A stretch of DNA of 38,356 nt, from NCBI GenBank assembly GCA_026713505.1, contig JAPOOH010000387.1, positions 1 through 38,356 of the forward strand. The letters run 5' to 3'. Each line of letters opens with the position of its first letter. Within the stretch, counting starts at the first letter, position 1. Shown here one piece after another: positions 2,586 through 23,464 of the stretch. The position numbers and the translations under genes were made by a program. A model generated the notes under the pieces. It was not told the DNA's origin. It worked only from the letters and a program-made list of their open reading frames with translations, and ran no database searches. Source of the stretch: Chloroflexota bacterium (GTDB lineage Bacteria > Chloroflexota > Dehalococcoidia > Lucifugimonadales > Australimonadaceae).

Positions 2586-3560
2586 TCAGGAGCAGATAAC
2601 TTGCGCGGCCTCGACGATGCGTTGCGCCGTCGGGGTAACGTAGTCCTCCTCCGACTGGTGGTACGGTATGGGTACGTTGGGGATGGCTACCCGCTTGATC
2701 GGGGCCCTTAAGGAGTCGAAACCTTCTTCCGCGATAGTGGCCGCAATCTCGGATGCAACGCCACAACTCTTCTGGGTCTCGTCGGCGACGACCACGCGTC
2801 CCGTCTTGGCGACGGAGCGCAGGATCGCATCCTTGTCGAGTGGCACCAGGGTCCGCGGGTCCACGACTTCAGCGCTTACTCCCTGGTCCGCCAGTGATTC
2901 CGCAGCTTCCAACGCCCGATGCACCATGATGGAGGTCGCCACGATGGTGACATCCGAGCCCTCCCGCTTCACGTCAGCCACACCGAGAGGTATGTCCCCG
3001 CTCGACGTCTCGTCGACCTCGCCCATCAACGGGTGCAACCGCTCATGGTCGATGAATATGGTGGGGTTGTCGCTGCGGACAGCCGCCTTGATGAGGCCTC
3101 GCACGTCAGCCGGGCTCCCCGGAACACATATCTCCAATCCAGGGGTGTTCCAGTACATAGCCTGGGGCGCGGTAGAGTGCTGAAGCGCACCAGCCCCCCG
3201 GATGCCGGCGCGCATGTGGAAGACGACGGGGCACGTGACCTGCCCTCGCGAGCCGTAGTAGGCCTGAGGCGCCTCGTTGGCGATCTGTGGGAACGCCTCG
3301 AATGAGAATGACCCTGTGCCGATGGCCACGATAGGCCGTAGCCCGGTGAGCGCAGCGCCCACTGCGATGCCGCAGTAGCCGAGCTCAGCGATGGGCGGGT
3401 TGGTGATGCGGTCTCCGAACTTCTCTCTCAACTGCCCCCACACCGCCGGGTCGCCGTGCAGTCCACCGAACCCCGCCCCCATCAGGACGACGGTCTCGTC
3501 CTCGGCCAGCGCCTCGAGGATGCCGATGGCCATAGCTTCCGAATAGGTCATTTCCCTCAT
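2586..3560 (-). CDS. 2-oxoacid dehydrogenase E1 component, beta subunit (second, divergent copy)
   Basis: 324-aa ORF with a transketolase-like pyrimidine-binding and C-terminal domain pattern (ITNPPIAELGYCGIAVGAALTGLRPIV ... TIFIDHERL ... GSDVTIVA). It follows the alpha gene after 12 nt. About 30% identical by eye to the copy at 4619-5614. Confidence 0.85.
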   Translation of the reverse strand: MREMTYSEAMAIGILEALAEDETVVLMGAGFGGLHGDPAVWGQLREKFGDRITNPPIAELGYCGIAVGAALTGLRPIVAIGTGSFSFEAFPQIANEAPQAYYGSRGQVTCPVVFHMRAGIRGAGALQHSTAPQAMYWNTPGLEICVPGSPADVRGLIKAAVRSDNPTIFIDHERLHPLMGEVDETSSGDIPLGVADVKREGSDVTIVATSIMVHRALEAAESLADQGVSAEVVDPRTLVPLDKDAILRSVAKTGRVVVADETQKSCGVASEIAATIAEEGFDSLRAPIKRVAIPNVPIPYHQSEEDYVTPTAQRIVEAAQVICS

Positions 3561-3572
3561 GGTGGCTCCCTC

Positions 3573-4604
3573 CTAGGCGAAGATGTAGTCCATCGCGCTC
3601 TCAGGCGACGGGGTGGGGCTGGACAGGGCGAACTCGCGGGCTTCCTCGGCTTCCTTCCGGGTCGCGGCGTCGATCTCCTCGACCTCCTCTCTGGTCATGG
3701 CTCCTTCCTCGACGAGGCTCCTGCAGAGGAGCGAGACAGGATCCGAGTTGGTCAGCCAGTCCTGCAGGCGCGCGTCGGCCGTTCCGGGGTCCCAGGTCCA
3801 GTCCATCTGGTGCGGCCCGCCGATCAACTCCGGGAAGGAACCCCGGTTGCCCGGCCAACGAGTCATACGCGACTCGATGAAGAACGGCCCTTCCCCGGCG
3901 CGCGTTCGGTGGGCGAGTTCGGTCAGCAGCCCCGCTACCTCCCTGACGTCGCCGCCGTCGACCACGTGGGTCTCAACATTCATCGCTTTGGCAACGTCGG
4001 CCAACTGTGTTGCCGCAAACGAGGAAGACGGGTACTCGCCCTGACGGCGACCCTCTGGAAGCACGCTGTTGTTCTCGCACATCATGATGAGCGGCAGTTT
4101 CCACAGGGACGACATGTTGAGGGCCTCGTGGAACGCACCTTCTTCGAGCACGCCGTCGCCGAAGAACACCAGCGACACCTGGTCTGTCCCGCGCTTCTTG
4201 ATCGAGAACGCCGCACCGGCCGCCATCGGAACGCACCCCCCGACGATTGCGGACGTTTGGAGAACGCCCAGGTGTTTGGCGATGACGTGGAAGGTACCGC
4301 CGCGGCCTTTGTTGTAACCCGTCGTGCGGCCGATGATCTCGGCTATCACGGGGCTCGGCTCTCCTCCTCGAGCGATCACGTGACCATGGTTCCGGTGTGT
4401 TGTGAACATATAGTCGTCGGGGCCCAGGGCCATGCACGCCCCAACGCCTGAGGCCTCCTGCCCGATGTAAACGTGGTAGTGGCCTCTGATGAGGTCGTCA
4501 AAGCTCGTGGCCAGATCGATGACTTGCTCCTCGGCGCGCCGGATGAGCATCATGCGGTGCAACGCGCTCTTCAGGGTGTCAACTGACAGTTCCGAGCCGG
4601 CCAT
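3573..4604 (-). CDS. 2-oxoacid dehydrogenase E1 component, alpha subunit (second copy, ThDP-binding)
   Basis: 343-aa ORF with the ThDP motif FFGDGVLEEGAFHEALNMSSLWKLPLIMMCENN (GDG-x26-NN) plus THRNHGHVIARG. About 40% identical by eye to the copy at 5616-6587. Confidence 0.85.
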   Translation of the reverse strand: MAGSELSVDTLKSALHRMMLIRRAEEQVIDLATSFDDLIRGHYHVYIGQEASGVGACMALGPDDYMFTTHRNHGHVIARGGEPSPVIAEIIGRTTGYNKGRGGTFHVIAKHLGVLQTSAIVGGCVPMAAGAAFSIKKRGTDQVSLVFFGDGVLEEGAFHEALNMSSLWKLPLIMMCENNSVLPEGRRQGEYPSSSFAATQLADVAKAMNVETHVVDGGDVREVAGLLTELAHRTRAGEGPFFIESRMTRWPGNRGSFPELIGGPHQMDWTWDPGTADARLQDWLTNSDPVSLLCRSLVEEGAMTREEVEEIDAATRKEAEEAREFALSSPTPSPESAMDYIFA

Positions 4605-4618
4605 GTCCCACTCTCCTT

Positions 4619-5614
4619 TCAGGAGCCCTCTTCCTTACTGTAGCTGAGCATCCGGTGAAGCCGCGCTGCGATACCTGCCCGGTCCGGAACGAACGCTCGT
4701 TCCAACTTCGGACTCGCGGGCGGAGGGGTGTACGGCGCGCCGATACGAAGGACCGGCGCGTCAAGGTAGTCCATCGCCATCTCCTGCACGCGCGCTGCTA
4801 TCTCTGCCCCCAAGCCCCCTTGCACCACAGCCTCATGGGCCACCGCCAGCCGGTTGGTCTTGCGAACGGACTCGATGACCGTGTCGATGTCCAGTGGCAC
4901 GAGGCTGCGCAGGTCAATCACCTCTACAGAGATGCCCTTTCCGGCCAAGTCCTCGGCCGCCTCAAGGCATTCGGTCAGCATCCGTGAGTAGGATACCAAC
5001 GTGATGTCCGAACCCTCTCTCACGATGTGCGCCTTGCCCAATACGGATTCGCCCGGCTCAAGGCCATCGGGATCGTGGCGGAAGTAGAGCCCTCGATGCT
5101 CGATGAAAACGACCGGCGAATCGTCCCGGATGGATGCGCGGATCAGGCGGTTGGCGTCCGCCGCCGACCCGGGAGCCACAGCCTTGAGCCCTGGAACGTG
5201 GGCGAACCACGCTTCGAGACTCTGGGAGTGTTGCGACCCCCAACCTCCTTGAGCACCCTGCTGAACGCGGATCACCATCGGCACCGCGAGTTGCCCACCC
5301 GACATGAAGTGCACCTTCGCTGCATGGTTGACTAGCTGATTCATCGCCAGCGTTATGAAGTCCACAAACATGATTTCAACTATGGGCCGCTTGCCGGCCA
5401 CCGCGGCCCCCACGGCTATCCCCATGATCGTGTCTTCGCTGATGGGTGTATTGATGACGCGCCCGTGGCCAAACTCGTCCACGAGCCCCCGTGTGACGCC
5501 GAATGCCCCCCCCACCGCCACGTCCTCGCCGAGGATCATGACGCGAGGGTCGGCGCGCATCTCCTCAGCGATACCTTCACGAAGCGCGTCCACGAACCGC
5601 AGGTTCGCCATCAC
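4619..5614 (-). CDS. 2-oxoacid dehydrogenase E1 component, beta subunit (first copy)
   Basis: 331-aa ORF with canonical E1-beta motifs: ILGEDVAVGGAFGVTRGLVDEFGHGRVINTPISEDTIMGIAVGAAVAGKRPIVEIMF and VFIEHRGLY. The start is GTG-ATG, 1 nt after the alpha stop. Confidence 0.9.
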   Translation of the reverse strand: MMANLRFVDALREGIAEEMRADPRVMILGEDVAVGGAFGVTRGLVDEFGHGRVINTPISEDTIMGIAVGAAVAGKRPIVEIMFVDFITLAMNQLVNHAAKVHFMSGGQLAVPMVIRVQQGAQGGWGSQHSQSLEAWFAHVPGLKAVAPGSAADANRLIRASIRDDSPVVFIEHRGLYFRHDPDGLEPGESVLGKAHIVREGSDITLVSYSRMLTECLEAAEDLAGKGISVEVIDLRSLVPLDIDTVIESVRKTNRLAVAHEAVVQGGLGAEIAARVQEMAMDYLDAPVLRIGAPYTPPPASPKLERAFVPDRAGIAARLHRMLSYSKEEGS

Positions 5615-5615
5615 A

Positions 5616-6587
5616 CTACCCGAACACCCGCGCCGTCATGGCGTCCATCGAGAGGTACTCGCCCCCCAAGGCGAAGCGGACGGCGTCCTCGACCCGTTCA
5701 TCCGCCTCGCGCTTGACCGTGGAAGCGGCGTCCTCGTCGAGGGCCCTTTCCGACTTGAGCTGTTTCGTCAGTCTCTCGATTGGATCCTTCTCACGCCACT
5801 CCGCGACCTCGTTGGCTTGGCGATACTGGGCAGGGTCGCCGATGTAGTGTCCGCGGAGCCGGTAGGTGAGGCACTCGACCATCGTAGGCCCTTCCCCATT
5901 CCGTGCGTGTTCGACAGCCCTGGACATCGCTTCGAGAACCTCCAACAAGTCGTTACCGTCCACTGTTCGGGCGGGGATGCCATACGGCTTGCAGTGTTCC
6001 GAAACCCGCTCGACGACCGTGTGCTCTGACATCGGAGTGAACTCGGCGTAGCCATTGTTTTCGCAGACGAGGACCACTGGGAGCTTCCACAGGGCTGCGA
6101 TGTTCAGGCTCTCGTGGAACCCACCGGTATTCGCGGCGCCGTCGCCGAAGTACACGGCCACAACCAGCCCCGCGTCCCGGTGGGCCAGGGCGGTGCCCAG
6201 GGCCAGCGGGATCGTGCCGCCCACGATGCCCGTCGCGCCCATCGCTTTGACCTCAGCAGCCACCAGGTGCATCGAGCCGCCGAGTCCCTCGCAGTAGCCG
6301 TTCGCTCTGCCGGCGAGCTCCGCCATCATCTTGTTGATGTCGGCGCCGCGCGCGATGAAATGGCCGTGGGAGCGGTGCGTTCCGTAGAGGTAGTCCCCTT
6401 CCAAGAGGGAGGTCGCAACCGCCACAGCTACCGCCTCCTGGCCGATCCCCACGTGCACGAGTCCGGCGATGTCTCCCCTGTGATAGAGATCGATGACGCG
6501 CTCTTCGAACGCCCGTATCAGCACCATGCGGCGGAGCAGATCGAGCTTGTCTTCAGTCGTGATGTCCATGGTGGAACTCAATGACAT
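5616..6587 (-). CDS. 2-oxoacid dehydrogenase E1 component, alpha subunit (first copy, ThDP-binding)
   Basis: 323-aa ORF with YFGDGAANTGGFHESLNIAALWKLPVVLVCENN (GDG-x26-NN) and THRSHGHFIARG. A GGGAGGA sits immediately upstream of the ATG. Confidence 0.9.
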   Translation of the reverse strand: MSLSSTMDITTEDKLDLLRRMVLIRAFEERVIDLYHRGDIAGLVHVGIGQEAVAVAVATSLLEGDYLYGTHRSHGHFIARGADINKMMAELAGRANGYCEGLGGSMHLVAAEVKAMGATGIVGGTIPLALGTALAHRDAGLVVAVYFGDGAANTGGFHESLNIAALWKLPVVLVCENNGYAEFTPMSEHTVVERVSEHCKPYGIPARTVDGNDLLEVLEAMSRAVEHARNGEGPTMVECLTYRLRGHYIGDPAQYRQANEVAEWREKDPIERLTKQLKSERALDEDAASTVKREADERVEDAVRFALGGEYLSMDAMTARVFG

Positions 6588-6605
6588 TCCTCCCGTGCCG
6601 CTCTT

Positions 6606-7838
6606 TCATTCGAGCTCGGCCGGGTGCTCCAACACCCTCCTTATCTCAGCGGTGAACAGCGCTGCCTCGGCGCCGCTAACCGCGCGGTGGTCCGCCGACA
6701 GGGTTGCGCTCATCATCTTACGTATCTGAACCCCACCGTCGCGTGGCACCGCCGTGTCCTCCACCTCCCCGACGGCGAGCATCGCCACCTGCGGCGACAC
6801 GATGATGGCAGCGAACGCCGAGACGCCGAACATCCCGAGGTTGCTCACGGAGAATGTGCCCGTGTACTCCTCCTGGCGCAGCGACCCAGCTCTGGCACGC
6901 GCGGCGAGGTCTTTCGCAGCTGCGGCGATATCGGCCACGGACTTCCCCTCGCAAGAGGGTATCGCTGGCACTATCAGCCCCTCCTGCAAGGCGACAGCCA
7001 TACCCATGTTCACATGAGGATGCACACGGAGGTGGTCCCCCTCGAATGTTGCGTTAAACGCTGGGTGACGTTCCAGCGCGATCGAACACGCCTTCATCAG
7101 CAGGTCGTTCACGCTGACGCGCTGGTCGGCGGATAGCGGACTGTTCAGCGCGTCTCGCCAAGCCATGGCTTCTGTCATGTCCACGCGGACAGTCACATAG
7201 AAGTGCGGTGCCTCATTGAACGTGGACCGCGTCCTTCGAGCGACAGCCTGGCCCATCTTGCCGATGGGGATTCGACCATCCGGATCAGGCTGCCGGGGCG
7301 ACAGCCCTCCCTGCTCAGTCGGGGTGACAGTGGCAGCGCCAGGATCCGCTACGCGCCGTGTCTCGTCCTCTACGCCGCCGTCATGGAATGCAAGCACGTC
7401 GTCCCGGGTTACCCGGCCCAGGGGGCCCGTTCCTTCCACCAGCGACAAGTCCACCCCCAACTCCGAAGCGAGCCGACGTGCGAGGGGAGACACGAAACGC
7501 CGAGATACTGAGTCCCCGGCTGGAGATGTGGACGGTACCAACAGCCCAGGCCCGGGCGGCAACCTGGGTTCCGCTTCCGTGGCTTCCGGGACTGCCTCGC
7601 CAGGCTCGCCGATGTACGCGATGACCCCGCCTACGGGGACCGCCGTGCCTTCTACAACAAAGATGCGGAGAAGGGAACCGCTGGCAGGGGCCTCAAACTC
7701 AAAGACAGCCTTGTCCGCCTCGATCTCGGCGATCGCCTCGCCCTGGGCGACGCCATCACCCTCATGCTTCAGCCAGGAGACGACCGTCCCCTTTTCCATG
7801 TCGTACCCCATCCGGGGCATCGCGACTACTGTGGCCAT
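6606..7838 (-). CDS. Dihydrolipoamide acyltransferase (E2 core of a 2-oxoacid dehydrogenase complex)
   Basis: 410-aa ORF. It has a single N-terminal lipoyl domain (EIEADKAVFEFEAP, lipoyl-Lys K43 at nt 7710-7712), a Pro/Ala linker and a peripheral-subunit-binding domain (SPLARRLASELGVDLSLVEGTGPLGRVTRDDV). The catalytic domain carries GTFSVSNLGMFG and SADHRAVSGAEAA. Confidence 0.9.
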   Translation of the reverse strand: MATVVAMPRMGYDMEKGTVVSWLKHEGDGVAQGEAIAEIEADKAVFEFEAPASGSLLRIFVVEGTAVPVGGVIAYIGEPGEAVPEATEAEPRLPPGPGLLVPSTSPAGDSVSRRFVSPLARRLASELGVDLSLVEGTGPLGRVTRDDVLAFHDGGVEDETRRVADPGAATVTPTEQGGLSPRQPDPDGRIPIGKMGQAVARRTRSTFNEAPHFYVTVRVDMTEAMAWRDALNSPLSADQRVSVNDLLMKACSIALERHPAFNATFEGDHLRVHPHVNMGMAVALQEGLIVPAIPSCEGKSVADIAAAAKDLAARARAGSLRQEEYTGTFSVSNLGMFGVSAFAAIIVSPQVAMLAVGEVEDTAVPRDGGVQIRKMMSATLSADHRAVSGAEAALFTAEIRRVLEHPAELE

Positions 7839-8273
7839 CGGGAGTGCCTACCCGTACCGTAATCTCCAGCGATCGGACTGGGGCCTCAGCGCACGACAAC
7901 ACAGTCTGGAACGAACTCGGCTGCTGAGGACTCGACTCACTCCTTCACAGTGGGCGCGTGCGGGACTACGCACGTCCGACCGAATGGGCCTCGTGGAGGC
8001 TGACGGAGACTGCGGGCGGGACTTCAAGTGGCGTGATCGCCCGTATTCCGTGCATCCCGCCGGGCAGGGCCGACACCTTCCTCCAGCTCGGGCAGTCTCT
8101 ACTCCGGCTAACTCGTGCGTCAAGCGCAGTCGGTCAAAGGCAGAGGCCCCGCATACAGGTCCGCCTGCCCGCGCCCGGGGCTGAGGTGATGCACTGGCGG
8201 GATGCGTCATCATTCCAGGATCGTGCTCCCCTTCACTACGGTTGAGATGGCTCTCGGCACAAGCGAATGCGGT

Positions 8274-8302
8274 TTGACTCTCCTCCGACCTCAATATAGA
8301 TT
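8274..8302 (+). promoter_or_regulatory. Candidate sigma70-type promoter for the thiolase-like operon
   Basis: TTGACT (8274-8279), 17-nt spacer, TAGATT (8297-8302). It lies in the most AT-rich patch of the spacer, about 75-110 nt upstream of the possible starts at 8378 and 8414. Confidence 0.35.
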
Positions 8303-8377
8303 GCCGCCATCATCCCAAGTCTGATACTCCGGATGTCGTCGGGCTCTTTGTAGGAGTCGGACCTGGTTCCGGTATGT

Positions 8378-9607
8378 GTGCATCGGGCAGTGGAGCAAGC
8401 GAAGGTCTTTCCGATGGACAACAGTCTGCGCGGCGCGGCTGCGATAGTCGGAATAGGAGAGTTGAAACCGGAGCGTACCCGTCCCGGCAGGGATGCGATG
8501 AGCCTGCTGGCCGAAGCCGCGTACCTGGCTATCCAGGACGCCGGACTTACCAAGGCCGACATCGACGGAATGATCGTCGACCCGGAGTTGGCCGTAGGAA
8601 GTGGTGGGGGTTACGCGCCCCGGATGGCCGAGTACATGGGCATCTATCCCATCTGGGCGACAGGCTGCGACGCACAAGGCGCAGCAGGGGTTGCGATGGC
8701 GTTGCAGGCTGCCGCCTACGTCAACGCAGGCCTGGCCAGATACGTCCTGTGCGGTATGGGTGCGGCAGTAGACCCCGCGGTGCGCCGCAGGCCTGCAGCC
8801 GGGGGACGGACCGAAACCGCGACTACGGAGTTCCAGGTGCCCTTTGGTCCCACAGTCGGGGCGAATGGCTGGTACGCCATGATCGCCAAGCGGTACGAGG
8901 CGCTGTACGGGGCCACCGTGGAGAAGCGCGCGAAGGTATCCGTCGATTTCCGCTACAACGCCAACCACAACCCCATGGCGATCTTCCACGACGTACCCAT
9001 CACGATGGACGACGTGGTGAACTCCCGCATCGTCGCTGACCCGCTTCATCTGCTGGAGTGCGTGATGCCCTGCGCCGGGGGATGCGCCTTTGTGGTTACC
9101 AGTGCGGAGATCGCGCAGAGTCTGCCTCACGAACCGGCCTACATCCTCGGCGGCGGTCTTGGGATACTGCGGGGTAACCTGACGCATGTCGGGGAGATAA
9201 CGGTCAGCCCCGTTGGACGCGGAGCTAGAAAGGCATTCTCCATGGCAGGCTACGGGCCGTCCGATGTCCAGGTGATGGAAATATACGACTCGTTCACCAT
9301 CACCGTGATGTGCGAATTGGAGGAGTCCGGGTTCTGCAGGAAAGGCGAGGCCGCGGACTGGATACAGGGGCACGACCTCACCTTCAAGGGTGACAAGCCG
9401 ATGAACACGCATGGAGGCCAACTGTCCTACGGTCAGGCCTCGACGGCAGGAGGCTGCGCCCAGGTCACGGAGGCCGTAAGACAGATCAGGCGGGACGGCG
9501 GCGAGCATCAGGTGCCTGGGCCAACTGACCTGATTTACGTCACTGGTTCGGGCGGCGCGTTCTCCCAGCAGTCCGCGATGCTGCTCGGCAGCAAGGCAAC
9601 GCTGTAG
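8378..9607 (+). CDS. SCP2/SCPx-type thiolase-like protein with non-canonical catalytic fingerprints
   Basis: 409-aa ORF (GTG at 8378). The more likely start is ATG 8414 (MDNSLRGAAAIVGIGE, GAAGG 8 nt upstream). The C-terminal region aligns without gaps to the SCPx pattern [20 protein letters not shown]...QLR...QVPG as NTHGGQLSYGQASTAGGCAQ...QIR...QVPG. Confidence 0.85.
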   Translation: MHRAVEQAKVFPMDNSLRGAAAIVGIGELKPERTRPGRDAMSLLAEAAYLAIQDAGLTKADIDGMIVDPELAVGSGGGYAPRMAEYMGIYPIWATGCDAQGAAGVAMALQAAAYVNAGLARYVLCGMGAAVDPAVRRRPAAGGRTETATTEFQVPFGPTVGANGWYAMIAKRYEALYGATVEKRAKVSVDFRYNANHNPMAIFHDVPITMDDVVNSRIVADPLHLLECVMPCAGGCAFVVTSAEIAQSLPHEPAYILGGGLGILRGNLTHVGEITVSPVGRGARKAFSMAGYGPSDVQVMEIYDSFTITVMCELEESGFCRKGEAADWIQGHDLTFKGDKPMNTHGGQLSYGQASTAGGCAQVTEAVRQIRRDGGEHQVPGPTDLIYVTGSGGAFSQQSAMLLGSKATL

Positions 9608-9622
9608 CAGCGAGCGAAGCGA

Positions 9623-13636: not shown

Positions 13637-13667
13637 AGCGCTCGATGCGCGCGCGACCTCGCTTCAC
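13633..13667. terminator. Inverted repeat at the convergent junction (possible bidirectional terminator)
   Basis: GTGAAGCG (13633-13640) and CGCTTCAC (13660-13667) form an 8-bp stem with a 19-nt GC-rich loop. The TGA of the enolase-family gene (13634-13636) and the stop of the cupin gene (13664-13666) lie inside the two arms. There is no U-tract. Confidence 0.3.
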
Positions 13668-14035: not shown

Positions 14036-14109
14036 GACGACTACCTCCTCAACAGGATGGGGCCAGGCACTCAGGTTGCCAGCCTATCGCACGCACTGAT
14101 GAGCGCGGG

Positions 14110-15027: not shown

Positions 15028-15066
15028 TTTGTCCTCCGGCGGGGCCTCTCGTGGTCGGCTCCGGCC

Positions 15067-15843: not shown

Positions 15844-15885
15844 GGCACCTGCTTTCGTCGGTGGTCGGCGTACGCTGAGTTGGGG

Positions 15886-17046
15886 CTAGACCACGCCTGC
15901 GGTGCGCAGCCCTTCGACCTCTTCGGTTGAGTAACCCAGACCACTCAGCACCTGGTCCGTATGCTCACCCAGCAGAGGAGGCGGCCGGTGTTCCACAGGG
16001 TCAACCCCCGACATGGTGAATGGAGGAGCGAACGAGAGCACAGGCCCCATCTCGGGATGGTTGACCCTGACGAACATGTTGTTCTCCACCATCTGGGGTT
16101 CGTAGAAGACCTCCTCACGCTCGAGCACCGGAGCGACGGGGACATCCGCCTCATCGAGCAGCTTGAGCCACTCCTTCGAGGGCCTGGTTTCGAACACTGC
16201 CTCGATAACCGGGTATATCTCCTCGCGGAATTCCCTTGTGCTGTTGTTGGGAAGCTTCGCCCGGGGGTCTTCTGCTATGTGCGGCAGGTCGAGCACCATG
16301 CATAAGCGGTAGAACTGCGCCGGACGGAGGGCGGTCACGTTGACGTAGACATCATCAGCACACCGGTAGATGCCGTAGGCAGGCATCTCAAGTTCGCGTA
16401 CGGGCTTGTCCGAGTTTTCGAACTTGACCAGGTTGGTCATCTGCATAGCTATCGCAGCGTGCAGGAGCGATGTCTCAATCAATTGTCCGCGTCCGGTCTT
16501 CTCGCGCTGGAGGAGTGCCAGCGTGATGGCGTAGCCCAGCAGCATCGGTATCGACGGGTCCGAGAGGAAAATACCCGTGCTCACCGGCACACCGTTCTCC
16601 CAACGCCGGTACTGTGCGCCTGAGAATCCCTGGGTCAGCCGGTCGTAGCCGGGTTTGCCTGCGTACGGGCCTCTACTGCCGTACGCACTGATAGATGCGT
16701 AGACGAGCCGGGGGTTGATCGCCTGGACCGATTCGTAGTCCACTCCGAGTTTCTTCGCTGCGGGGAGACGCATGTTTCCGATCAGGATGTCGGATGATTC
16801 GGCAAGTTTCCTGAATACATCCTTGCCTTCGGGAGCGGCCAGGTTCAACGTGAGGCTCTGCTTGTTCCGGTTCTGCACGACGTAACCCGTGCCGCCGTCG
16901 GAGGCCGGGTCGGCAGAAGCGGACCGAGGCGGGGGTTCCACCCTGATGACCTCGGCGCCCTGGTCGGCCAGGTAGACCGCCGTGCCTGGGCCGGCTATGC
17001 CCGTCGTGAGGTCGATTACCCTTATTCCATCGAGTGCGTGAGGCAT
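15886..17046 (-). CDS. Family III (CaiB/BaiF) CoA-transferase, canonical
   Basis: 386-aa ORF with IRVIDLTTGIAGPGTAVYLADQGAEVIRVEPP and the canonical catalytic context GKPGYDRLTQGFSG (GYD Asp). GGGGAGGAG lies 4 nt upstream of the ATG. Confidence 0.9.
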   Translation of the reverse strand: MPHALDGIRVIDLTTGIAGPGTAVYLADQGAEVIRVEPPPRSASADPASDGGTGYVVQNRNKQSLTLNLAAPEGKDVFRKLAESSDILIGNMRLPAAKKLGVDYESVQAINPRLVYASISAYGSRGPYAGKPGYDRLTQGFSGAQYRRWENGVPVSTGIFLSDPSIPMLLGYAITLALLQREKTGRGQLIETSLLHAAIAMQMTNLVKFENSDKPVRELEMPAYGIYRCADDVYVNVTALRPAQFYRLCMVLDLPHIAEDPRAKLPNNSTREFREEIYPVIEAVFETRPSKEWLKLLDEADVPVAPVLEREEVFYEPQMVENNMFVRVNHPEMGPVLSFAPPFTMSGVDPVEHRPPPLLGEHTDQVLSGLGYSTEEVEGLRTAGVV

Positions 17047-17106
17047 GGTCTCCTCCCCATCTGCAGCGCGCTCGGCAGTAGTACCCCGCGATGTGCCGCC
17101 GGACCC

Positions 17107-18231
17107 CTACAAGCCGTAGAGACGCCTTGCGTTGTCGCAGAGGATCTTGTCGACAGCCTGCTGGGAGATTTCGCCTGCGTCCACACGCGTCTGGAGCGCC
17201 TCCTGGAAGTGCCGCTCCTGGGACTGGTCAGCGTGCGTGTAGTCCGAGCCCACTACTATGTTGTCCTCGCCTGCGAACTTGAGGATGTATGGCAAATCTT
17301 CGTCCACCAGACAGGTGACGAAGATGTTCAACTCCCGAAGCGTGTCGTGCAGGGTGTTGAACCCGTCCGGCAGATCTGCGTACGTGAGCGTCCTGGAGGA
17401 CGGCCCCAGGGAGCCCGGGTGGTCCATGCGCCGCCTTATCTGGTAGAGCTCGTGCGGTATCCAGCCCGCCGCGGCTTCGATGAACCCCCACCGGATGTTC
17501 GGGTACCGGTGAGGAAGCTTGCTGAGCACCAGCGATGTGAACGTCTCAGGCAGGTAGGCAAAGGGCACCCGTGGCCCACGGAAGTCGCCGTCTGTGCGAT
17601 TCTCGCGAGTGTTCGGAATGCCGCTGCCGATATGCATGCAGACCGGCATCTCCAACTCCTCGGCGGTCTCCCATAGCGGGTCGAAGTACTCATCGGTGAA
17701 GTTATGGTCGGCTTCCCGGTTGCCCTTCTTGAAGATGCCAACCGCCCCGTGGTCCTTGGCCCACCGTACCTCCTTGATCGCCTCGTCCATGTCCATCAGC
17801 GGCGGGAGGCACAACCAACCCAACCGACCGTCGGATTCTCCGCACCTGTCCCCCAACCACCGGTTGTAAGCACGCTTGAGCGCCACGTCTCCTTCGACCT
17901 TCGTGGTGGGTTGAACGAGGAAGAGCGTAGGGTAGATAACCTGGGCTTGAACGCTGAGTTCGTCCATGTCCCGCAGTCGCGCCCCCACGTCGAGTAGTTC
18001 ACGCGTTTCGACGGTGGTCATCGTCCTGGCGTCTTCCCGGTGCAGCCGCGGTTGGCGGTCACCGTCGATGACCCAGAATCGCTGAGTGGCCCTGCCTGGA
18101 GTGGGGTTGCTTGGGTAGCCGACGACGGGCTTGAACTGGACCTCGCTCGAGGCCATGTATTCCCATGTGTCCTCGGTCTCGTCGATGTGCGTATCTGCGT
18201 CTATCGTGGTGAGAGCTGTTGCGGTGGCCAT
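17107..18231 (-). CDS. Amidohydrolase_2 (ACMSD/LigW/LigI-like metal-dependent hydrolase, decarboxylase or hydratase family)
   Basis: The ORF track starts at 18321, but ATG 18231 (MATATALTTIDADTHIDETEDTW) has GAGGAGG 7 nt upstream and begins 14 nt after the upstream stop. It also has PVCMHIGSG and a C-terminal VVGSDYTHAD. The N-terminal metal motif reads D-x-D-x-H rather than the more usual D-x-H-x-H. Confidence 0.8.
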   Translation of the reverse strand: MATATALTTIDADTHIDETEDTWEYMASSEVQFKPVVGYPSNPTPGRATQRFWVIDGDRQPRLHREDARTMTTVETRELLDVGARLRDMDELSVQAQVIYPTLFLVQPTTKVEGDVALKRAYNRWLGDRCGESDGRLGWLCLPPLMDMDEAIKEVRWAKDHGAVGIFKKGNREADHNFTDEYFDPLWETAEELEMPVCMHIGSGIPNTRENRTDGDFRGPRVPFAYLPETFTSLVLSKLPHRYPNIRWGFIEAAAGWIPHELYQIRRRMDHPGSLGPSSRTLTYADLPDGFNTLHDTLRELNIFVTCLVDEDLPYILKFAGEDNIVVGSDYTHADQSQERHFQEALQTRVDAGEISQQAVDKILCDNARRLYGL

Positions 18232-18247
18232 GGGTATCCTCCTCACA

Positions 18248-19471
18248 TCAGGTCGTAGTGTCCGGTTCCCAGCGGTTGACGCGCACGACGCCGTCCGCCT
18301 CCAGCGTTTCGATGCTGGCATCGTCGTACCCGATCCCGTGAAGCACTTCCAGTGTGTTCTCTCCGAGCAGGGGGGCGAAGTTACGGAACTGCACGGGCGT
18401 GTCCGAGAGATGGAATGGTGTGGCGAGTTGCCTCACTGTCCCTTCCATGGGGTGGTCCAACTCCCACACCATCCCGCGCTCGCTAGCGTACTTGCCTTCC
18501 AACACCTCGTCCAACTCGAGGACCGGCACAACGGCGATCTCCTCCGGGATCAGGGCCATCCACTCGTCGCGGGTCTTCGTGAGCATGTGCTCGCGTACCT
18601 TTCGTATAGCGTCGGCGTCACGGTCGGGCCGGGTATCCCGCATCTCAGGAAGTCCAACGGCGTCGCAGAAGGGGGCCCAGAAGTGGTTCTGGTAGGCAGC
18701 CGCGTTGCTTATGTATTTGCCGTCCTTGCAGCGGATGTTCCCTATGCTCGGCCAACCGCGATGGCGGTACGACTGTTCGCGGAAATAACCGGGCGCGGTG
18801 CCGTTGAGGATAGTGGTCCCTCCCTCAACGAGCGCAATGTCTACCTGTTGCCCCTTGCCTGTCCGTTCTCGTGCCATGAGTGCTGCCTGGATCGATATCA
18901 CGGCGAGTGCGGCGGAGTAGCTGTCCACAGGCGTGAAGAGCATGTCTGCAGGCTCCGCGTCCTGTCCCGTGGTCATGGCAGTGAAGCCGGAATAACCCTG
19001 GGAGTTGCGCTCGTTACCCGGCCAGTTGGAGTAGCTGTTGCCGAACCCCCATCCACTCAGCGTAGCGTAGATGAGCCTGGGGTTGATCGCGCTCAGCGTC
19101 TCGTAGTCCGCGCCGAGGCGATTGTACACAGGCAGGCGGAAGGAGCCGAAGAATACGTCAACGTCCACAATCAGCTTATGGAGGATCGCCTGCCCTTCAG
19201 GCTTCTGAAGGTTGATGGCGATGCTCCGCTTATTACGATGTATGTGTTCCCAGGCGTTGCTTCTGAACTCTTCCTCAGCAACCTTTGGGTCTATTCCGAC
19301 TCGCTCACGCGACTCGCGCGCAGCGGCCTGGTTGCGGTAAGCATTGCGGTCTGCAACGTCTTCCACCTTCAGGATGTCCATGCCCAGATCGGCCAGCATC
19401 CATGTCGCCGTCGGCCCGGGCACCAGACGGGTCACGTCAATCATCCGGTACCCTTCTAGCGGCAATGTCAT
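18248..19471 (-). CDS. Family III (CaiB/BaiF) CoA-transferase paralogue with Glu at the catalytic Asp position
   Basis: The ORF track starts at 19642, but ATG 19471 (MTLPLEGYRMIDVTRLVPGPTATWMLADLGMDILKVEDV) has AAGGAGG 7-8 nt upstream. The catalytic context reads WPGNERNSQGYSG, which aligns without gaps to KPGYDRLTQGFSG of the 15886-17046 paralogue. Confidence 0.85.
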   Translation of the reverse strand: MTLPLEGYRMIDVTRLVPGPTATWMLADLGMDILKVEDVADRNAYRNQAAARESRERVGIDPKVAEEEFRSNAWEHIHRNKRSIAINLQKPEGQAILHKLIVDVDVFFGSFRLPVYNRLGADYETLSAINPRLIYATLSGWGFGNSYSNWPGNERNSQGYSGFTAMTTGQDAEPADMLFTPVDSYSAALAVISIQAALMARERTGKGQQVDIALVEGGTTILNGTAPGYFREQSYRHRGWPSIGNIRCKDGKYISNAAAYQNHFWAPFCDAVGLPEMRDTRPDRDADAIRKVREHMLTKTRDEWMALIPEEIAVVPVLELDEVLEGKYASERGMVWELDHPMEGTVRQLATPFHLSDTPVQFRNFAPLLGENTLEVLHGIGYDDASIETLEADGVVRVNRWEPDTTT

Positions 19472-19592
19472 CGATCCAGCCTCCTTTCGGACTATCGGAT
19501 TCTGCCATAGGGCTGCCGCGATGGGCTCTGCAGCCTCGCAGACCAACCGGTCCACATCGAGAGCGGTCCTGACCCCACCTCGCCCTGTTGCT

Positions 19593-20504
19593 CTACGTCC
19601 CGCGCATCCTGGGGTCCAGCACGTCCCGCAGCGCATCGCCAAATACGGCGAACGAGAAGGTGAGCAAGGCCAGGGCCACGCCGGGGAAGATGGAGAGCCA
19701 CGGTGCCAGCTCCATGTTCGTCTTGGCAGCCGACTGCAGCATGTTGCCCCATGAGGGTGTCGGCGGTTGTACTCCCAGCCCCAGGAAGCTGAGGCTCGCT
19801 ACGATAACGATCGCCGCCCCCAGCTGCTGCGTGGCAAGCACGAACACCGGGGCCAGGCAGTTGGGAATCATGTATCGCGTAAGGATCCTCCACGTCCTTG
19901 CGCCGATGGCGACAGCCGCCAGGACGTAGGGCTCTTCCTTAACGCTCAGGGCCGAGGAACGGGACAGGCGTATCACCTTGTCGAAATAGTTGAAGGCGAT
20001 CGCAAGGGTGACGTTCAGGAGCGACGGTCCCAGCGCAACGACCATGACCAGCACCACCACCAGTCCCGGGAAACCCATCATCGTGTCGATGAAGCGCTGC
20101 ACAACCAAATCGAACTTGCCGCCGACGTAGGCCGACGTCACCCCTATCACCACTCCGACCGTAGTCCCGATGATGACTGACGCAAAGCCGACGAATAGAG
20201 ACACCCTTGAACCGTAGATGATTCGGCTCAACTGGTCCCTGCCGAAGACGTCTGTGCCAGCGAGGTACTTCCAACTGGGCGGCTCGTAGCTCGCGCTGGG
20301 GTTATGCGTGTAGGGGTCTGCTGGCACGATCACCGGGGCCAGGACTGCTATCGTGATCATGAAGATGACGACGGCTCCACCGAAGGCGCCCAGAGGTTTC
20401 CTGCGCGCGAATCGCAGGATGCCTGACAGGATGGACAACGCCCTCCTGCGGTTCCGGGCGAAACCGGGGGACAGGATGTCGGCCGTTGGAGATATCGTGC
20501 TCAA
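19593..20504 (-). CDS. ABC transporter permease, peptide/opine/nickel (DppC/OppC-like) family
   Basis: 303-aa ORF with a TTG start. It is multi-TM with an N-terminal RRKPLGAFGGAVVIFMITIAVLAPVIVPADP and an EAA-like loop region (SALSVKEEPYVLAAVAIGART). Confidence 0.9.
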   Translation of the reverse strand: MSTISPTADILSPGFARNRRRALSILSGILRFARRKPLGAFGGAVVIFMITIAVLAPVIVPADPYTHNPSASYEPPSWKYLAGTDVFGRDQLSRIIYGSRVSLFVGFASVIIGTTVGVVIGVTSAYVGGKFDLVVQRFIDTMMGFPGLVVVLVMVVALGPSLLNVTLAIAFNYFDKVIRLSRSSALSVKEEPYVLAAVAIGARTWRILTRYMIPNCLAPVFVLATQQLGAAIVIVASLSFLGLGVQPPTPSWGNMLQSAAKTNMELAPWLSIFPGVALALLTFSFAVFGDALRDVLDPRMRGT

Positions 20505-20532
20505 ACTGTCGTCCCTTTCGTGCGCATCGAGA

Positions 20533-21495
20533 CTATTTCGCGAAGTCGATCCGGGGATCGATGATCTTGTACAAAAGGTCGACGATCAGATTGATGCCCA
20601 ACAGGAAGAATACGAGCAGAAGGGTCAGGCTCTGGATGACCGGATAGTCCCGCTCCCTGGCGCCCGCGATGATTCCCTGCCCTATTCCCGGGATGCTGAA
20701 GATGTTCTCCAGTATCAGGCTCCCGCTTAGCAGGAAGCTCAGATAGAAGCCTGCAACCGTGATAACGGGGATGAGCGCATTGCGGAGCACGTGCCTTCCC
20801 AGAACAACGATCTCATGCAGGCCCTTGCTGCGCGCCGTGCGTACGTAGTCTTGCCGCAGCACTTCCAGCACGTTAGACCGGGTTATCCGCGTCATGAACG
20901 CGGTATAACCCCAGGCCAGGATCAGCACAGGCCAGATGATCTTGAGAAAGTGCGCGGTGGGGTCATCCCAGACCGGTCTGTAGCGCAGGGGTGGGCTCCA
21001 CTGAAGCACGAGCACCATGAAGAGAAGCAGCATCAGGGCAAGCCAGAAATTGGGTATAGAATTGCCCGTAATGGTGAAGATGCGAATGACATAGTCAGGC
21101 CATCTATCCTGATAGATGGCGGCGAGGATGCCTAACGGGATCGAAACGATCATCGTGATGATGATGGTGTACAGGGCCAGCAGGGCAGTGACTCTGAGCC
21201 GCCGGGAGACCATCTCAGAGATCGGCTCCCTCGTAGCGAGAGACTCGCCACCGAACTGGCCGTTCATCATGCTCCATATCCAGGTCCCGTACTGAACGGC
21301 GAGAGGGTCGTTGAGCCCCAGGCTGGTCCTCAGCTGCTCGTACTGTTCCTGGGTGACGTAGGCCTGGTCCTCGTCCGAAAGGATCCGCGCAGCAACGTCC
21401 CCGGGAAGGACGCGCATGGCGCCGAAGATCAGGAGGGACGCGAAGAAGAGCGTGGGGACGAACAGCAGGATCCGCTTAGCAACGTAAGCCTTCAT
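20533..21495 (-). CDS. ABC transporter permease, peptide/opine/nickel (DppB/OppB-like) family
   Basis: 320-aa ORF with MKAYVAKRILLFVPTLFFASLLIFGAMRVLPGD and YVRTARSKGLHEIVVLGRHVLRNALIPVITV (EAA loop). Confidence 0.9.
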   Translation of the reverse strand: MKAYVAKRILLFVPTLFFASLLIFGAMRVLPGDVAARILSDEDQAYVTQEQYEQLRTSLGLNDPLAVQYGTWIWSMMNGQFGGESLATREPISEMVSRRLRVTALLALYTIIITMIVSIPLGILAAIYQDRWPDYVIRIFTITGNSIPNFWLALMLLLFMVLVLQWSPPLRYRPVWDDPTAHFLKIIWPVLILAWGYTAFMTRITRSNVLEVLRQDYVRTARSKGLHEIVVLGRHVLRNALIPVITVAGFYLSFLLSGSLILENIFSIPGIGQGIIAGARERDYPVIQSLTLLLVFFLLGINLIVDLLYKIIDPRIDFAK

Positions 21496-21532
21496 TCGCC
21501 CCTCCGCCCTTCTTCACATTCGTTCTTGGCCC

Positions 21533-23335
21533 CTACTTATCCAGCCAGGCGTACTGGTACGACGCATAGGTGGGCGGGTTCAGCACGAACGCGGTCTTTG
21601 CATTCTGGACGTAGCCCCGGGCGGGCACCAGGTTGAGACCCACCACCGAGTGCACCATCAGGACCTCGTCGCGATATATGTATTGCTCGATCTCGCGGAG
21701 TATCCGCAACCGGTCCTCGCTGTTCGTCACCGTACCGATCTCGGCTGCGAACTCATCGATCCTGGTGTCCTCATGCACGATGCTGGCGTAAGGACTCTCC
21801 GACTTCCTGCCGTACTGGAAGTTGATCGACGACGGCGTGCCGAGGTCCAGGGTTCCACCACCCCACGAGACTTCCCAGTCGGTGCCAGCCTTCGTCGAGT
21901 CGAATGCGGTAACGTCCATCACTTGGAGCTTGGGGTCGAGGCCCAGGCCATCCATCGCTCCGACCCACCACTCCATCTGTTGCACCTGGGTATCGGGCAG
22001 GATGATGGAGAACTCTAGCCCTTGAGCACCAGCCTCGGCCACGAGCTCTCGTGCCCTGGCCTGGTCGGCTGCCTTCGTGTCGGGGTTGAAACCCGGCCAC
22101 TCCATGAAGTCCGGATTGGACGAGCGCACGTCCGAGAACCCGGCCCGAACACGGCCGTTCCCCTGCAGCAGCGTAGCGACAGCGGTCTGCCGGTCTACAT
22201 ACAGCGAGATGGCCTGGCGGAGGCGCTTGTCAGCGAATGGTCCTTCGATGACGTTGAACCCCATGCCGGCGCCTCCACCACCCGCTATCTCCATGAAGTA
22301 GACGTCCTCACCCAGGCTCTGCTGGTACAGCGGCACCTCTTCCGGCGTGACGTAGTAGCGAGCTCCCCTGGCGCCGACGTCGAGCTGTCCCGTCCTGAAC
22401 GCCGCGTGGAACGCCGCCGGGTCAGACATGATGAAGTACTCGAGGCCGTCAAGGAACGGCAGTGCGTTCCCAGCGTCGTCTGTGCCGTAGAAGTCGTCGA
22501 ACCGTTCGAGGACGACGTCGACTCCACGTTCGTAACTCACGAACTTGAACGGCCCGGCGCCGATGTTGCCGAGTTCAAGTGGCGCGGCTTCGAGGTTTCC
22601 TCCCTGGAACGCAGGTTCGAAGACATGCTTGGCGTGGAATATCGGTATCCGGTGCATCCCGAGGCTTTCGAGGTAGAAGGCGTCGGGGGAGTTCAAGGTG
22701 ATGCGCACGCGGTTTCCGTCGATCGCCTCGACCGAAGCGATGTCGCCGAACTGACCCCTTGCGACGCCCGGCAGGCGCTCCTGGTCGCCTACCTTGTACC
22801 CGGAGATGAATAGCTCGAGCCACCACCGGAAGTCCTCGTTGTTCATCGGAGCGCCGTCGTGCCAGGTCAACCCGTCCCGGATCTTGAATGTCCATTCAGT
22901 GAAATTGTCGTTGACCTCCCAGCTCTCAGCGAAACCCGGGCAGATCGTTGTCTCGTCGTCGAAACAGGCCTGAACGAAGTTCCCCTCACCTGCGATGGCC
23001 GCGGTGATGGGCGTCAGGTTGTAGTTGGTGCTGCGCATGGTGTCCCATGCCGCTGGTGGGTCAGCCCGGTGTCCGATCCGGAGGATCCCTCCGTACTTCG
23101 GTTGGTCAACCGGGATCGGCGTGGCGGTCGGCGTTGCCGTGGGTTCCGCCGGCGCTACTGTGGGTGCAGGGTCCATGGACCCGCTCTCGGGGGGACTTGT
23201 CGGAGTCGGCTCCGGCGGAGGAGAAGTAGGAGTCGCGGTCGGCTCGTCAGACGAGCATGCGGCGATCACCGCAAGCAGTGTTGCCACTACCAGCGCCACA
23301 GTCAACGAAGTCAGAGAGCGCATCTTCCACCTCAT
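21533..23335 (-). CDS. ABC transporter substrate-binding lipoprotein, family 5 (DppA/OppA-like)
   Basis: The ORF is open to 23371. ATG 23335 and ATG 23323 have SD-like AGGA and GAGGTGG upstream, and both give a lipoprotein signal peptide (MRSLTSLTVALVVATLLAVIAAC, lipobox IAAC). A Pro/Thr-rich tether (PTATPTSPPPEPTPTSPPESG...EPTATPTATP) precedes a family-5 SBP body. Confidence 0.9.
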   Translation of the reverse strand: MRWKMRSLTSLTVALVVATLLAVIAACSSDEPTATPTSPPPEPTPTSPPESGSMDPAPTVAPAEPTATPTATPIPVDQPKYGGILRIGHRADPPAAWDTMRSTNYNLTPITAAIAGEGNFVQACFDDETTICPGFAESWEVNDNFTEWTFKIRDGLTWHDGAPMNNEDFRWWLELFISGYKVGDQERLPGVARGQFGDIASVEAIDGNRVRITLNSPDAFYLESLGMHRIPIFHAKHVFEPAFQGGNLEAAPLELGNIGAGPFKFVSYERGVDVVLERFDDFYGTDDAGNALPFLDGLEYFIMSDPAAFHAAFRTGQLDVGARGARYYVTPEEVPLYQQSLGEDVYFMEIAGGGGAGMGFNVIEGPFADKRLRQAISLYVDRQTAVATLLQGNGRVRAGFSDVRSSNPDFMEWPGFNPDTKAADQARARELVAEAGAQGLEFSIILPDTQVQQMEWWVGAMDGLGLDPKLQVMDVTAFDSTKAGTDWEVSWGGGTLDLGTPSSINFQYGRKSESPYASIVHEDTRIDEFAAEIGTVTNSEDRLRILREIEQYIYRDEVLMVHSVVGLNLVPARGYVQNAKTAFVLNPPTYASYQYAWLDK

Positions 23336-23464
23336 GGTTATTCCTGGAGTCGCTCCGTCCGGTGACGCCATGGGCTACGTTGGCAACCGGACGGAACAGG
23401 GAACACTGGACGACCTGAGCCTCAACTTCCCGAGAGCAGCTCAGACGCCTTCGGACACGCCGCC

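Follow-up and report, generated by a model that had tools for sequence, protein, structure and literature searches.

A probable CoA-dependent catabolic module of six to nine genes, with a putative retro-aldolase and an oxygenase-like protein, within a variable 18-gene locus of a Dehalococcoidia bacterium

The 38,356-nt contig JAPOOH010000387.1 of a Chloroflexota bacterium (assembly GCA_026713505.1), referred to here as the window, carries 18 genes centred on coenzyme A (CoA) chemistry between positions 2586 and 23371. The original prediction, made from the letters alone, read these genes as a single undescribed pathway with its own importer. All 18 gene families that it named were recovered at their places by open reading frame (ORF) listing and Pfam, with E-values ranging from 4e-9 (cupin) to 4e-191, and the genes fell into the three tightly packed transcription blocks that it had described. 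The layout is not an assembly artefact, because an independent contig (L081) had the identical 18-gene order plus a PepN gene, with proteins 80-98% identical. Several of the longest-ORF starts were too long, and start codons were refined using gene calls in relatives; the Amidohydro_2 gene was placed at 18231 and the CaiB_a gene at 19471, with a strong GGAGG site at each. After refinement the internal gaps were 10-74 nt, apart from two junctions, permC-CaiB_a (121 nt) and permB-permC (about 28-91 nt). GGAG, GAGG or AGGA was found within about 20 nt upstream of about 12 of the 18 starts, 10 of these at -7 to -15, which agrees with the ribosome-binding sites reported earlier. Scans for missing functions covered the long ORFs (at least 100 aa) in the window that were judged likely genes, and among these neither an AMP-binding ligase nor a helix-turn-helix regulator was found anywhere in the 38 kb, again as predicted. 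The blocks and genes are as follows; core, near-core and accessory refer to the comparison of related loci described below.

2586-7838, minus strand: block 1, with E1beta, E1alpha, E1beta, E1alpha and then E2 (lipoyl, E3-binding and catalytic domains), that is, E2 plus two E1alpha/E1beta pairs of PDH/BCKDH (pyruvate/branched-chain 2-oxoacid dehydrogenase) type by Pfam; a neighbour outside the conserved module
8378/8414-13636, plus strand: block 2, with Thiolase_C_1, zf-ChsH2/OB_ChsH2_C (DUF35), a 790-aa protein of two CoA_transf_3 domains, and MR_MLE (Pfam)
13664-23371, minus strand: block 3, with cupin, alpha/beta hydrolase, ECH_1, CoA_transf_3, Amidohydro_2, CoA_transf_3, two BPD_transp_1 and SBP_bac_5 (Pfam)
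8272-8312, plus strand: promoter-like element upstream of the thiolase-like gene, TTGACT, 17 nt, TAGATT, extended to ...TATAGATTGCCGCCATC
8414-9607 (longest ORF from 8378), plus strand: Cys-less thiolase-like protein of 397 aa, putative Sal/SLP-like retro-aldolase (Pfam Thiolase_C_1); core
9629-10057, plus strand: stand-alone DUF35 protein of 142 aa, zinc ribbon CRLC..CPGPQC and OB fold (Pfam zf-ChsH2 and OB_ChsH2_C); core
10126-12498, plus strand: fused tandem family III CoA-transferase of 790 aa (2xCaiB); core
12536-13636, plus strand: MR/MLE enolase-superfamily enzyme, acid-sugar-dehydratase-like (Pfam MR_MLE_N/C); accessory
13664-14035, minus strand: small cupin (Pfam Cupin_2); accessory
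14110-15027, minus strand: alpha/beta-fold serine hydrolase with GLSMGG nucleophile elbow (Pfam Abhydrolase_1/6); near-core
15067-15840, minus strand: crotonase-fold enzyme (Pfam ECH_1); core
15886-17046, minus strand: CaiB_b, family III CoA-transferase (Pfam CoA_transf_3); core
17107-18231, minus strand: Amidohydro_2-fold protein with a dinuclear-oxygenase (ARO) ligand set (Pfam PF04909); core
18248-19471, minus strand: CaiB_a, family III CoA-transferase (Pfam), AAGGAGG site at its start; near-core
19593-20504, minus strand: Opp/Dpp-type ABC permease, C type, permC (Pfam BPD_transp_1 and OppC_N); accessory
20533-21495, minus strand: Opp/Dpp-type ABC permease, B type, permB (Pfam BPD_transp_1); accessory
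21533-23371 (likely start 23335 or 23323), minus strand: family-5 solute-binding lipoprotein (Pfam SBP_bac_5); accessory

The fused 2xCaiB gene served as the anchor for a neighbourhood comparison, in which 10 kb on either side was fetched around 80 genomic and six metagenomic relatives and all window proteins were searched against these regions. The related set consisted of seven loci whose fused 2xCaiB was 70-89% identical to the window protein. In all seven, the thiolase-like, DUF35, 2xCaiB, crotonase, CaiB_b and Amidohydro_2 genes were present together. The alpha/beta hydrolase and CaiB_a were each found in five of the seven loci, the MR enolase in three (truncated in one), and the cupin and the importer in two each, with MFS genes in place of the importer in other loci. 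The E1/E2 operon lay within 10 kb of the other genes in a single related locus, L081 (about 88% identity), which was also the only one with the whole 18-gene layout; L083, L001 and L082 (86-89%) are as close to the window as L081 and all lacked E1/E2. Gene order was also fluid. At L084 the alpha/beta hydrolase, crotonase, CaiB, Amidohydro_2, CaiB, DUF35 and thiolase-like genes formed one seven-gene run on the same strand with 2xCaiB divergent, and at L085 a five-gene string of crotonase, CaiB, Amidohydro_2, DUF35 and thiolase-like genes faced 2xCaiB, and next to these lay genes for a PAS/GerE regulator and an MFS transporter. L082 also had an MFS transporter, together with an AMP-dependent ligase, and had no binding protein or permeases. 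The triad of CaiB, Amidohydro_2 and alpha/beta hydrolase recurred in L003, L004 and L086, and distant Myxococcota and Actinomycetota loci again combined tandem CaiB, a thiolase-like protein, DUF35 and a crotonase. Only six to nine of the 18 genes thus travel together in related Dehalococcoidia, and the 18 genes did not hold as one co-conserved unit. The original prediction had named a lack of co-conservation in relatives as the finding that would speak against it, and such a lack was found for operon 1 and largely for the importer, the MR enzyme and the cupin. These, and above all the double-E1/E2 operon, are changeable neighbours, and the conserved entity is probably a catabolic module of six to nine genes among neighbours that change between genomes.

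The flanks of the module were recorded at several loci. In L001, the closest complete genome, both flanks (3586-7960 and 16619-20577) were distinctive: hopanoid genes lay on one side of the module, encoding squalene-hopene cyclase and the HpnG-like (PNP_UDP_1) and HpnH-like (radical-SAM/DUF3463) proteins, and an FAA hydrolase and a phage-type integrase were found on its other flank. At L084, AlpA and transposase genes adjoined it. The module may therefore sit in mobile or variable regions, judging by the L001 integrase and the L084 AlpA and transposase genes.

The second block probably has a promoter of its own. Promoter and terminator scans returned counts at or below shuffle expectation, and the match at 8274-8302 gained meaning only because it was conserved across loci. 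A 40-nt block, GTTTGAC...TATAGATTGCCG(C/A)CATC, was nearly invariant in the window, L081, L083 and L001, with the upstream neighbour varying (E2, FAA hydrolase or hpnH) and the remaining spacer diverged. From this alignment, operon 2 would keep its own conserved, promoter-like element whatever lies upstream.

The thiolase-like protein had as its best Protein Data Bank (PDB) match CtSal, a retro-aldolase of bile-acid side chains (9myr; E 7e-92, 43.6% identity), followed by an uncharacterised Chloroflexi protein, TcLtp2 and BbsB (7pxp). As in CtSal, Gly occupies the position of the nucleophilic Cys (..CDAQGAAG..), and the alignment retained Tyr302 (the Tyr of YDSF), Gln347 and Gln352. Thiolysis is impossible for this protein because the nucleophilic Cys is missing, so that the thiolase role first given to it was dropped, and a retro-aldolase is the most plausible assignment from the alignment. 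The protein departs from CtSal in the motif YDSF, where CtSal has YDCY, leaving Ser at the position of Cys304. YDSF and the nearby LSYGQ (LSFGQ in CtSal) were essentially invariant in orthologs, with YDS[FY] in all seven related loci and YDSY in one of them. A search of 1.84 billion cluster representatives gave a modest 509 proteins at E below 1e-30, the nearest non-self one 58% identical to the window protein, and the third residue of the motif (YDx) varied, being Cys in 51, Ser in 22 and Ala in 22 of about 126. Judged from these counts, YDSF is a recurrent, uncharacterised variant in a broad family. The DUF35 gene was always beside the thiolase-like gene in all seven related loci, and its product is presumed to be the partner of the aldolase-like protein. 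The pair resembles CtSal-CtShy(DUF35) (9myr) and TcLtp2-ChsH2(DUF35) (6ok1) in the thiolase fold, the Gly at the nucleophile position, the Tyr of YDxx, Gln347 and Gln352, and the DUF35 partner. It differs from them in having YDSF instead of YDCY (Sal) or YDHF (Ltp2), in a free-standing DUF35 protein that has a C4 rather than a C3H1 ribbon and is not fused to a MaoC hydratase, and in lacking the steroid gene context.

In the original prediction the Amidohydro_2 protein was one of several enzymes that together would supply hydration, C-C cleavage, decarboxylation or lactone opening. Its best PDB matches were PtmU3 (E 7e-16, 27.6% identity) and DitZ (E 1e-13), and decarboxylases followed at E 4e-6. 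LigW-type and gamma-resorcylate-decarboxylase-type matches were 10 orders weaker than PtmU3 and DitZ and their ligand motifs differ, and a decarboxylase or lactonase is no longer the preferred assignment. The ligand set is that of a dinuclear oxygenase, not of a hydrolase or decarboxylase: DADTH in the N-terminal first strand aligned to ADSH of PtmU3 (D-x-H), CMHIGSG (His) and IEAAAGW (Glu) aligned to ligand residues of PtmU3 and DitZ, and the C-terminal D-Y-T-H-A-D aligned to D-Y-P-H-S-D of DitZ with all three ligands present and Pro replaced by Thr throughout the clade. These motifs (D-T-H, HIGSG, IEAA and D-Y-T-H-A-D) were conserved in orthologs down to 48% identity. The D-x-H and D-x-P-H-x-D/E motifs separate ARO oxygenases from PF04909 hydrolases and decarboxylases, where they are absent (PMC13154177); the ligand list was taken from AibH2, and PtmU3 hydroxylates CoA-linked substrates (PMC7782822). 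The window protein therefore likely belongs to ARO, with one motif deviation. It shares with PtmU3 (6omp/6omq), DitZ (8uyr), AibH2 and SfbO the PF04909 TIM barrel, the D-x-H, the His (HIG), the Glu (EAA) and the Asp-x-x-His-x-Asp loop, and is set apart by its low identity to PtmU3, by Thr in place of Pro, and by the lack of a ferredoxin or reductase gene nearby. The PtmU3 step belongs to platensimycin biosynthesis.

Three of the core and near-core proteins are of family III. The N half of 2xCaiB had its best PDB match in 9fn0_A (E 5e-61, 33.8% identity) and the C half in 9fn0_B (E 8e-52, 33.9% identity). Chains A and B of 9fn0 are the two benzylsuccinate CoA-transferase subunits, and the halves of 2xCaiB follow the order A then B. 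The catalytic Asp was kept in the C half and in chain B; Met stands at this position in the N half and Tyr in chain A. By its alignment, 2xCaiB is best described as a single-chain pseudo-heterodimer with one catalytic half. The family III catalytic Asp (Asp169 of Frc/YfdW) was present at canonical spacing in CaiB_a, in CaiB_b and in the 2xCaiB C half. In CaiB_b it lies in LSDPSIP, conserved in orthologs; in CaiB_a the residue aligned to YfdW Asp169 is Asp (TPVDSYS), which corrects the earlier label of this protein as a Glu variant. The earlier count of four CoA-transferase domains stands for three catalytic ones, and the fourth is the non-catalytic N half of 2xCaiB. The best NCBIfam matches of the transferases were mesaconate- and glutarate-specific enzymes, below cut-off. 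The tandem CaiB architecture is much expanded: one Dehalococcoidia genome of about 2 Mb (a 1,958,694-bp contig) held at least five paralogues (P0058, P0060, P0089, P0090 and P0118; 40-44% identical), and at 65 of the 80 genomic loci the tandem CaiB had otherwise unrelated neighbours. The best-known tandem-CaiB protein is DddD, the dimethylsulfoniopropionate (DMSP) CoA-transferase/lyase, whose chain of about 800 aa likewise contains a pair of CaiB domains (only the architecture was compared); the best structural relatives of 2xCaiB are instead the Bbs subunits, and its neighbour genes are unrelated to DMSP catabolism. A tblastn search of plasmids returned only generic "CoA transferase" annotations, with a Rhodococcus cluster rich in acyl-CoA dehydrogenases and a Bosea 2xCaiB-MR-Opp cluster, both of them suggestive, though neither is orthologous. 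On the Bosea sp. plasmid pNBC550 (8989-19004), a tandem CaiB at 34% identity precedes a hypothetical gene, an MR/MLE gene and a full set of Opp-type ABC genes, and a LacI regulator lies upstream; an alphaproteobacterium thus also combines 2xCaiB, MR and Opp genes as the window does.

The remaining enzymes were less informative. Compared with Crt (5z7r), the crotonase has GGGCM in place of GGGCE, so that the first catalytic Glu is Met, and retains FGIPE; the Met was conserved in orthologs down to 67% identity, and the best NCBIfam match was EchA19, below cut-off. The best PDB match of the alpha/beta hydrolase was 3bwx, whose function is unassigned, and no informative relative was found. NCBIfam matches of the MR enzyme were all below cut-off, and its best PDB match, the galactonate dehydratase 5olc, gave no substrate clue. 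In the NCBIfam scan of all 18 proteins none reached an equivalog cut-off, and only E1beta-1 passed a subfamily model.

Taken with the conserved neighbourhood, these features point to an uncharacterised module for CoA transfer, followed by beta-hydroxylation or hydration, and then retro-aldol cleavage, a reading that we hold with a probability of about 0.6. Homology is the basis for the activation, beta-functionalisation and retro-aldol steps, and we infer the single-chain transferase, the dehydrogenase-free route, and the recharging and hydrolase steps. A carboxylic acid would be activated without ATP by the family III CoA-transferases, among which the fused 2xCaiB would unite the parts of a heteromeric BbsEF-type transferase in a single chain, with only one of its halves catalytic. 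A substituted dicarboxylate would be the most likely substrate, because the nearest transferase relatives act on benzylsuccinate, mesaconate and glutarate. The beta-carbon of the acyl-CoA would then be functionalised by the PtmU3/DitZ-like dinuclear oxygenase, or by the variant crotonase acting on an enoyl-CoA, and neither an acyl-CoA dehydrogenase nor a short-chain dehydrogenase/reductase (SDR) would be needed. Retro-aldol cleavage of the beta-hydroxyacyl-CoA would fall to the Cys-less thiolase-like protein, held by DUF35, with a short acyl-CoA and a carbonyl compound as the products. The released acyl-CoA would recharge the transferase, and the serine hydrolase would remove a residual thioester, ester or lactone. 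Such a route bypasses ligase, acyl-CoA dehydrogenase and SDR, which would explain why the module has none of them.

A number of observations weigh against this reading. Ser stands at the essential Cys304 position, where the change C304S abolishes the activity of CtSal, and the YDSF enzyme would need another acid or different chemistry. The crotonase lacks one of the two hydratase Glu residues, and hydration is not assured. The ARO signature is imperfect, D-Y-T-H-A-D as against D-x-P-H-x-D/E, which places the protein outside the published motif filter, and the window scans gave no Rieske ferredoxin or reductase gene. CaiB_a also matches alpha-methylacyl-CoA racemase, with an E-value about five orders weaker than for formyl-CoA transferases, and some of the CaiB proteins here may not be transferases. 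As to the extent of the module, the comparison spans 10 kb on either side of one anchor, and genes missing from it may sit elsewhere in those genomes; L081 retains the full 18-gene layout, and E1/E2 may be functionally linked to the module in this particular lineage. A more specific form of the reading, which we regard as doubtful, takes the core for an oxygen-dependent bypass of beta-oxidation for acids with a blocked alpha-carbon (branched or quaternary; terpenoid-derived and carboxyl-rich alicyclic acids). If true, it would join PtmU3-like beta-hydroxylation, cleavage by a DUF35-bound, Cys-less, YDSF-type aldolase of a new class and acyl-CoA recycling by a single-chain BbsEF-type transferase without ATP, flavin dehydrogenases or NAD.

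Other explanations were weighed on the same evidence. If all 18 genes formed one pathway, as first proposed, an imported acid would be converted to 2-oxoacids and these by the doubled E1/E2 to acyl-CoAs. The tight packing of divergent or convergent operons and the identical layout in L081 speak for this, and the chemistry is plausible, since lyase cleavage in the itaconate and mesaconate pathways (citramalyl- or malyl-CoA-type intermediates) yields 2-oxoacids. Against it stand the absence of E1/E2 from six of the seven related loci, three of them as close as L081, the independent occurrence of multi-E1 operons with other neighbours, the conserved promoter-like element that operon 2 keeps regardless of the upstream gene, and an importer that is present in two of the seven loci, gives way to MFS genes elsewhere and has no ATPase gene in the cluster; a single 18-gene pathway is thus unlikely. 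It is very unlikely, at the other extreme, that there is no pathway at all and that paralogue-rich families (CaiB, Amidohydro_2, alpha/beta hydrolase and crotonase) piled up by chance. These families are highly expanded, as the tandem-CaiB paralogues of the 1.96-Mb genome and the 65 loci with unrelated neighbours attest, and the accessory genes vary freely; yet six specific orthologues (70-96% identical) stayed adjacent in all seven loci despite inversions and reshuffling, and the promoter element and the active-site peculiarities were conserved with them.

Two known systems come close to parts of the module. The absence of an acyl-CoA dehydrogenase, a steroid CoA ligase and ring-degrading genes from the window and the related loci argues against a system of the Sal/Shy or Ltp2/ChsH type that cleaves the side chains of steroids or bile acids, as do the Ser at the position of Cys304, the DUF35 protein not fused to a MaoC hydratase and the commonness of YDSF in a broad uncharacterised family. 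What commends such a system is the 43.6% identity to CtSal with a DUF35 partner, the EchA19 match of the crotonase, and the action of PtmU3 and DitZ, the nearest Amidohydro_2 relatives, on polycyclic terpenoids; we give it only a slight chance. The lowest probability of all goes to Bbs-type beta-oxidation of aryl- or alkyl-succinates arising from fumarate addition in anaerobic hydrocarbon degradation. The match of the 2xCaiB halves to the two benzylsuccinate CoA-transferase subunits invites this reading, and the thiolase-like, DUF35 and crotonase proteins echo BbsB, BbsA and BbsH, but no acyl-CoA dehydrogenase (BbsG), SDR (BbsCD) or glycyl-radical enzyme was found in the window scans, the thiolase-like protein has no Cys for thiolysis, and the NCBIfam scores were 126.5 against a cut-off of 750 for BbsB and 29.5 against 250 for BbsA. 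The module shares with the Bbs system (BbsEF 9fn0, BbsH and BbsAB 7pxp) a transferase of two CaiB-type units with the canonical Asp in one only, a crotonase, the pairing of a thiolase-fold protein with DUF35 (zinc ribbon and OB fold), and the lack of an ATP-dependent ligase. It departs from that system in its transferase, a single 790-aa chain whose two halves are each about 34% identical to a Bbs subunit, in lacking BbsG, BbsCD and the thiolase Cys, and in having the oxygenase-like Amidohydro_2 protein, two more CaiB proteins and a serine hydrolase.

The preferred sequence of CoA transfer, beta-functionalisation and retro-aldol cleavage also has a counterpart in the C5-dicarboxylate pathways (itaconate Ict-Ich-Ccl, mesaconate Mct-Mch-Mcl, and the SmtAB and Mct steps of the 3-hydroxypropionate bi-cycle). 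These likewise use succinyl-CoA-dependent activation, hydration and an aldol-type cleavage that regenerates an acyl-CoA, and the mesaconate- and glutarate-specific NCBIfam matches of the window transferases, though below cut-off, point the same way. They differ in that the window lyase is of thiolase fold with DUF35 and not of HpcH/citrate-lyase-beta type, that its hydratase is a crotonase minus one Glu and not MaoC, and that an oxygenase-like protein is added. The module resembles the Bbs system, the steroid side-chain aldolases, the C5-dicarboxylate pathways and the PtmU3 step and is a member of none, which bears out the earlier statement that the combination, taken whole, fits no pathway with a name. 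Literature searches for the gene combination and for entry 9FN0 found no description of it.

The class of the organism had been guessed correctly from the sequence: the named relatives are "Dehalococcoidia bacterium" or "Chloroflexi bacterium". Relatives of 2xCaiB at 85-90% identity were present in several metagenome assemblies, and a SAR202-labelled protein was only about 42% identical to it. The suggested likeness to the paralogue-rich repertoire of SAR202 also held, as CaiB-family expansion, tandem "DddD-like" proteins and ATP-free CoA activation have already been noted there (Landry et al., PMC5395668), and the general idea is for that reason not new. Consumption of refractory dissolved organic matter has been ascribed to Dehalococcoidia and SAR202-type bacteria, whose greatly expanded families of CaiB proteins, amidohydrolases and hydrolases still lack assigned reactions. 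Our analysis reduces a 21-kb cluster to a module of six to nine genes, reassigns two putative roles (oxygenase, not hydrolase; retro-aldolase, not thiolase) and names three catalytic variants, the YDSF aldolase, the D-x-T-H-x-D ARO-like protein and the single-chain BbsEF-type transferase. If the proposal is true, branched carboxylic acids could be cleaved by a concrete route that needs neither ATP nor a dehydrogenase; if the proposed chemistry fails, the module is one more uncharacterised beta-oxidation-like cluster.

The doubled 2-oxoacid dehydrogenase of operon 1 had been seen as the last part of the pathway. It is next to the module in one of the seven related loci only, and when E1alpha-2 was used as the anchor in metagenomes, the tandem E1 arrangement proved to be conserved on its own (55-74% identity) at three loci where the CoA module was absent:

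L087, 8016-18795: E1 array related to window 2586-7838, four E1 pairs with one E2
L088, 5919-12082: related E1 array, three E1 pairs
L092, 1395-5371: related E1 array, two E1 pairs

The doubled E1 of the window sits at the small end of the size range of such multi-E1 paralogue arrays, where a single E2 appears to be shared by several E1 pairs. Operon 1 is probably a multi-E1 2-oxoacid dehydrogenase unit in its own right, which in this lineage happens to adjoin the module. Its complex has all of E1 and E2, and no E3 was found in the window. The multi-E1 arrays elsewhere adjoined other Opp-type ABC genes. An M1-family aminopeptidase gene (PepN-like; 2-2563, minus strand), which runs off the left end of the window, lies directly downstream of E1beta-2, with the same adjacency in L081. 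The aminopeptidase and the Opp-type genes near E1 arrays hint at a role of operon 1 in the breakdown of peptides or amino acids.

The importer was described as the cluster's own. Its binding protein and two permeases are indeed in the cluster, and an ATPase gene is not. Two Opp/Dpp-type ATPase genes lie 4.1 kb away on the same strand as the importer, behind an ABC-2 operon on the plus strand:

27522-29600, minus strand: two Opp/Dpp-type ABC ATPase genes (Pfam ABC_tran and oligo_HPY)
23025-27532, plus strand: ABC-2 system of an ATPase, ABC2_membrane, a GldG-like ABC_transp_aux/DUF7088 protein and DUF4340, between the binding-protein gene and the Opp-type ATPases

The two ATPases are the only candidates to power the importer. 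The binding protein carries an N-terminal lipoprotein signal (lipobox ..LAVIAAC), and a stretch of about 70 residues rich in Pro and Thr links this to the SBP_bac_5 domain, as would suit a binding protein tethered to the membrane of a monoderm cell. Its PDB relatives were distant (peptide- or opine-binding, E about 1e-20) and gave no substrate clue. At L082 and L002, an OppD-like gene and the next hypothetical gene abutted the module directly.

Rfam and tRNA scans detected no riboswitch or other RNA within the cluster, and in the spacer from permC to CaiB_a nothing was conserved except the ribosome-binding site and the start codon. The sole RNA gene detected in the window was a tRNA-Arg (CCG) at 30841-30915 (minus strand). 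Further along, an ORF at 31062-31820 (plus strand) has collagen-like Gly-X-Y repeats (Pfam Collagen, E 1e-9) and may be a spurious frame in DNA of 65% G+C. The genes dnaB (34824-36188) and rplI (36201-36899) lie on the minus strand, and just downstream of dnaB, on the same strand, a 496-aa ORF (32853-34343) with two IstB/DnaC-like AAA+ domains may encode a duplicated helicase-loader-like protein.

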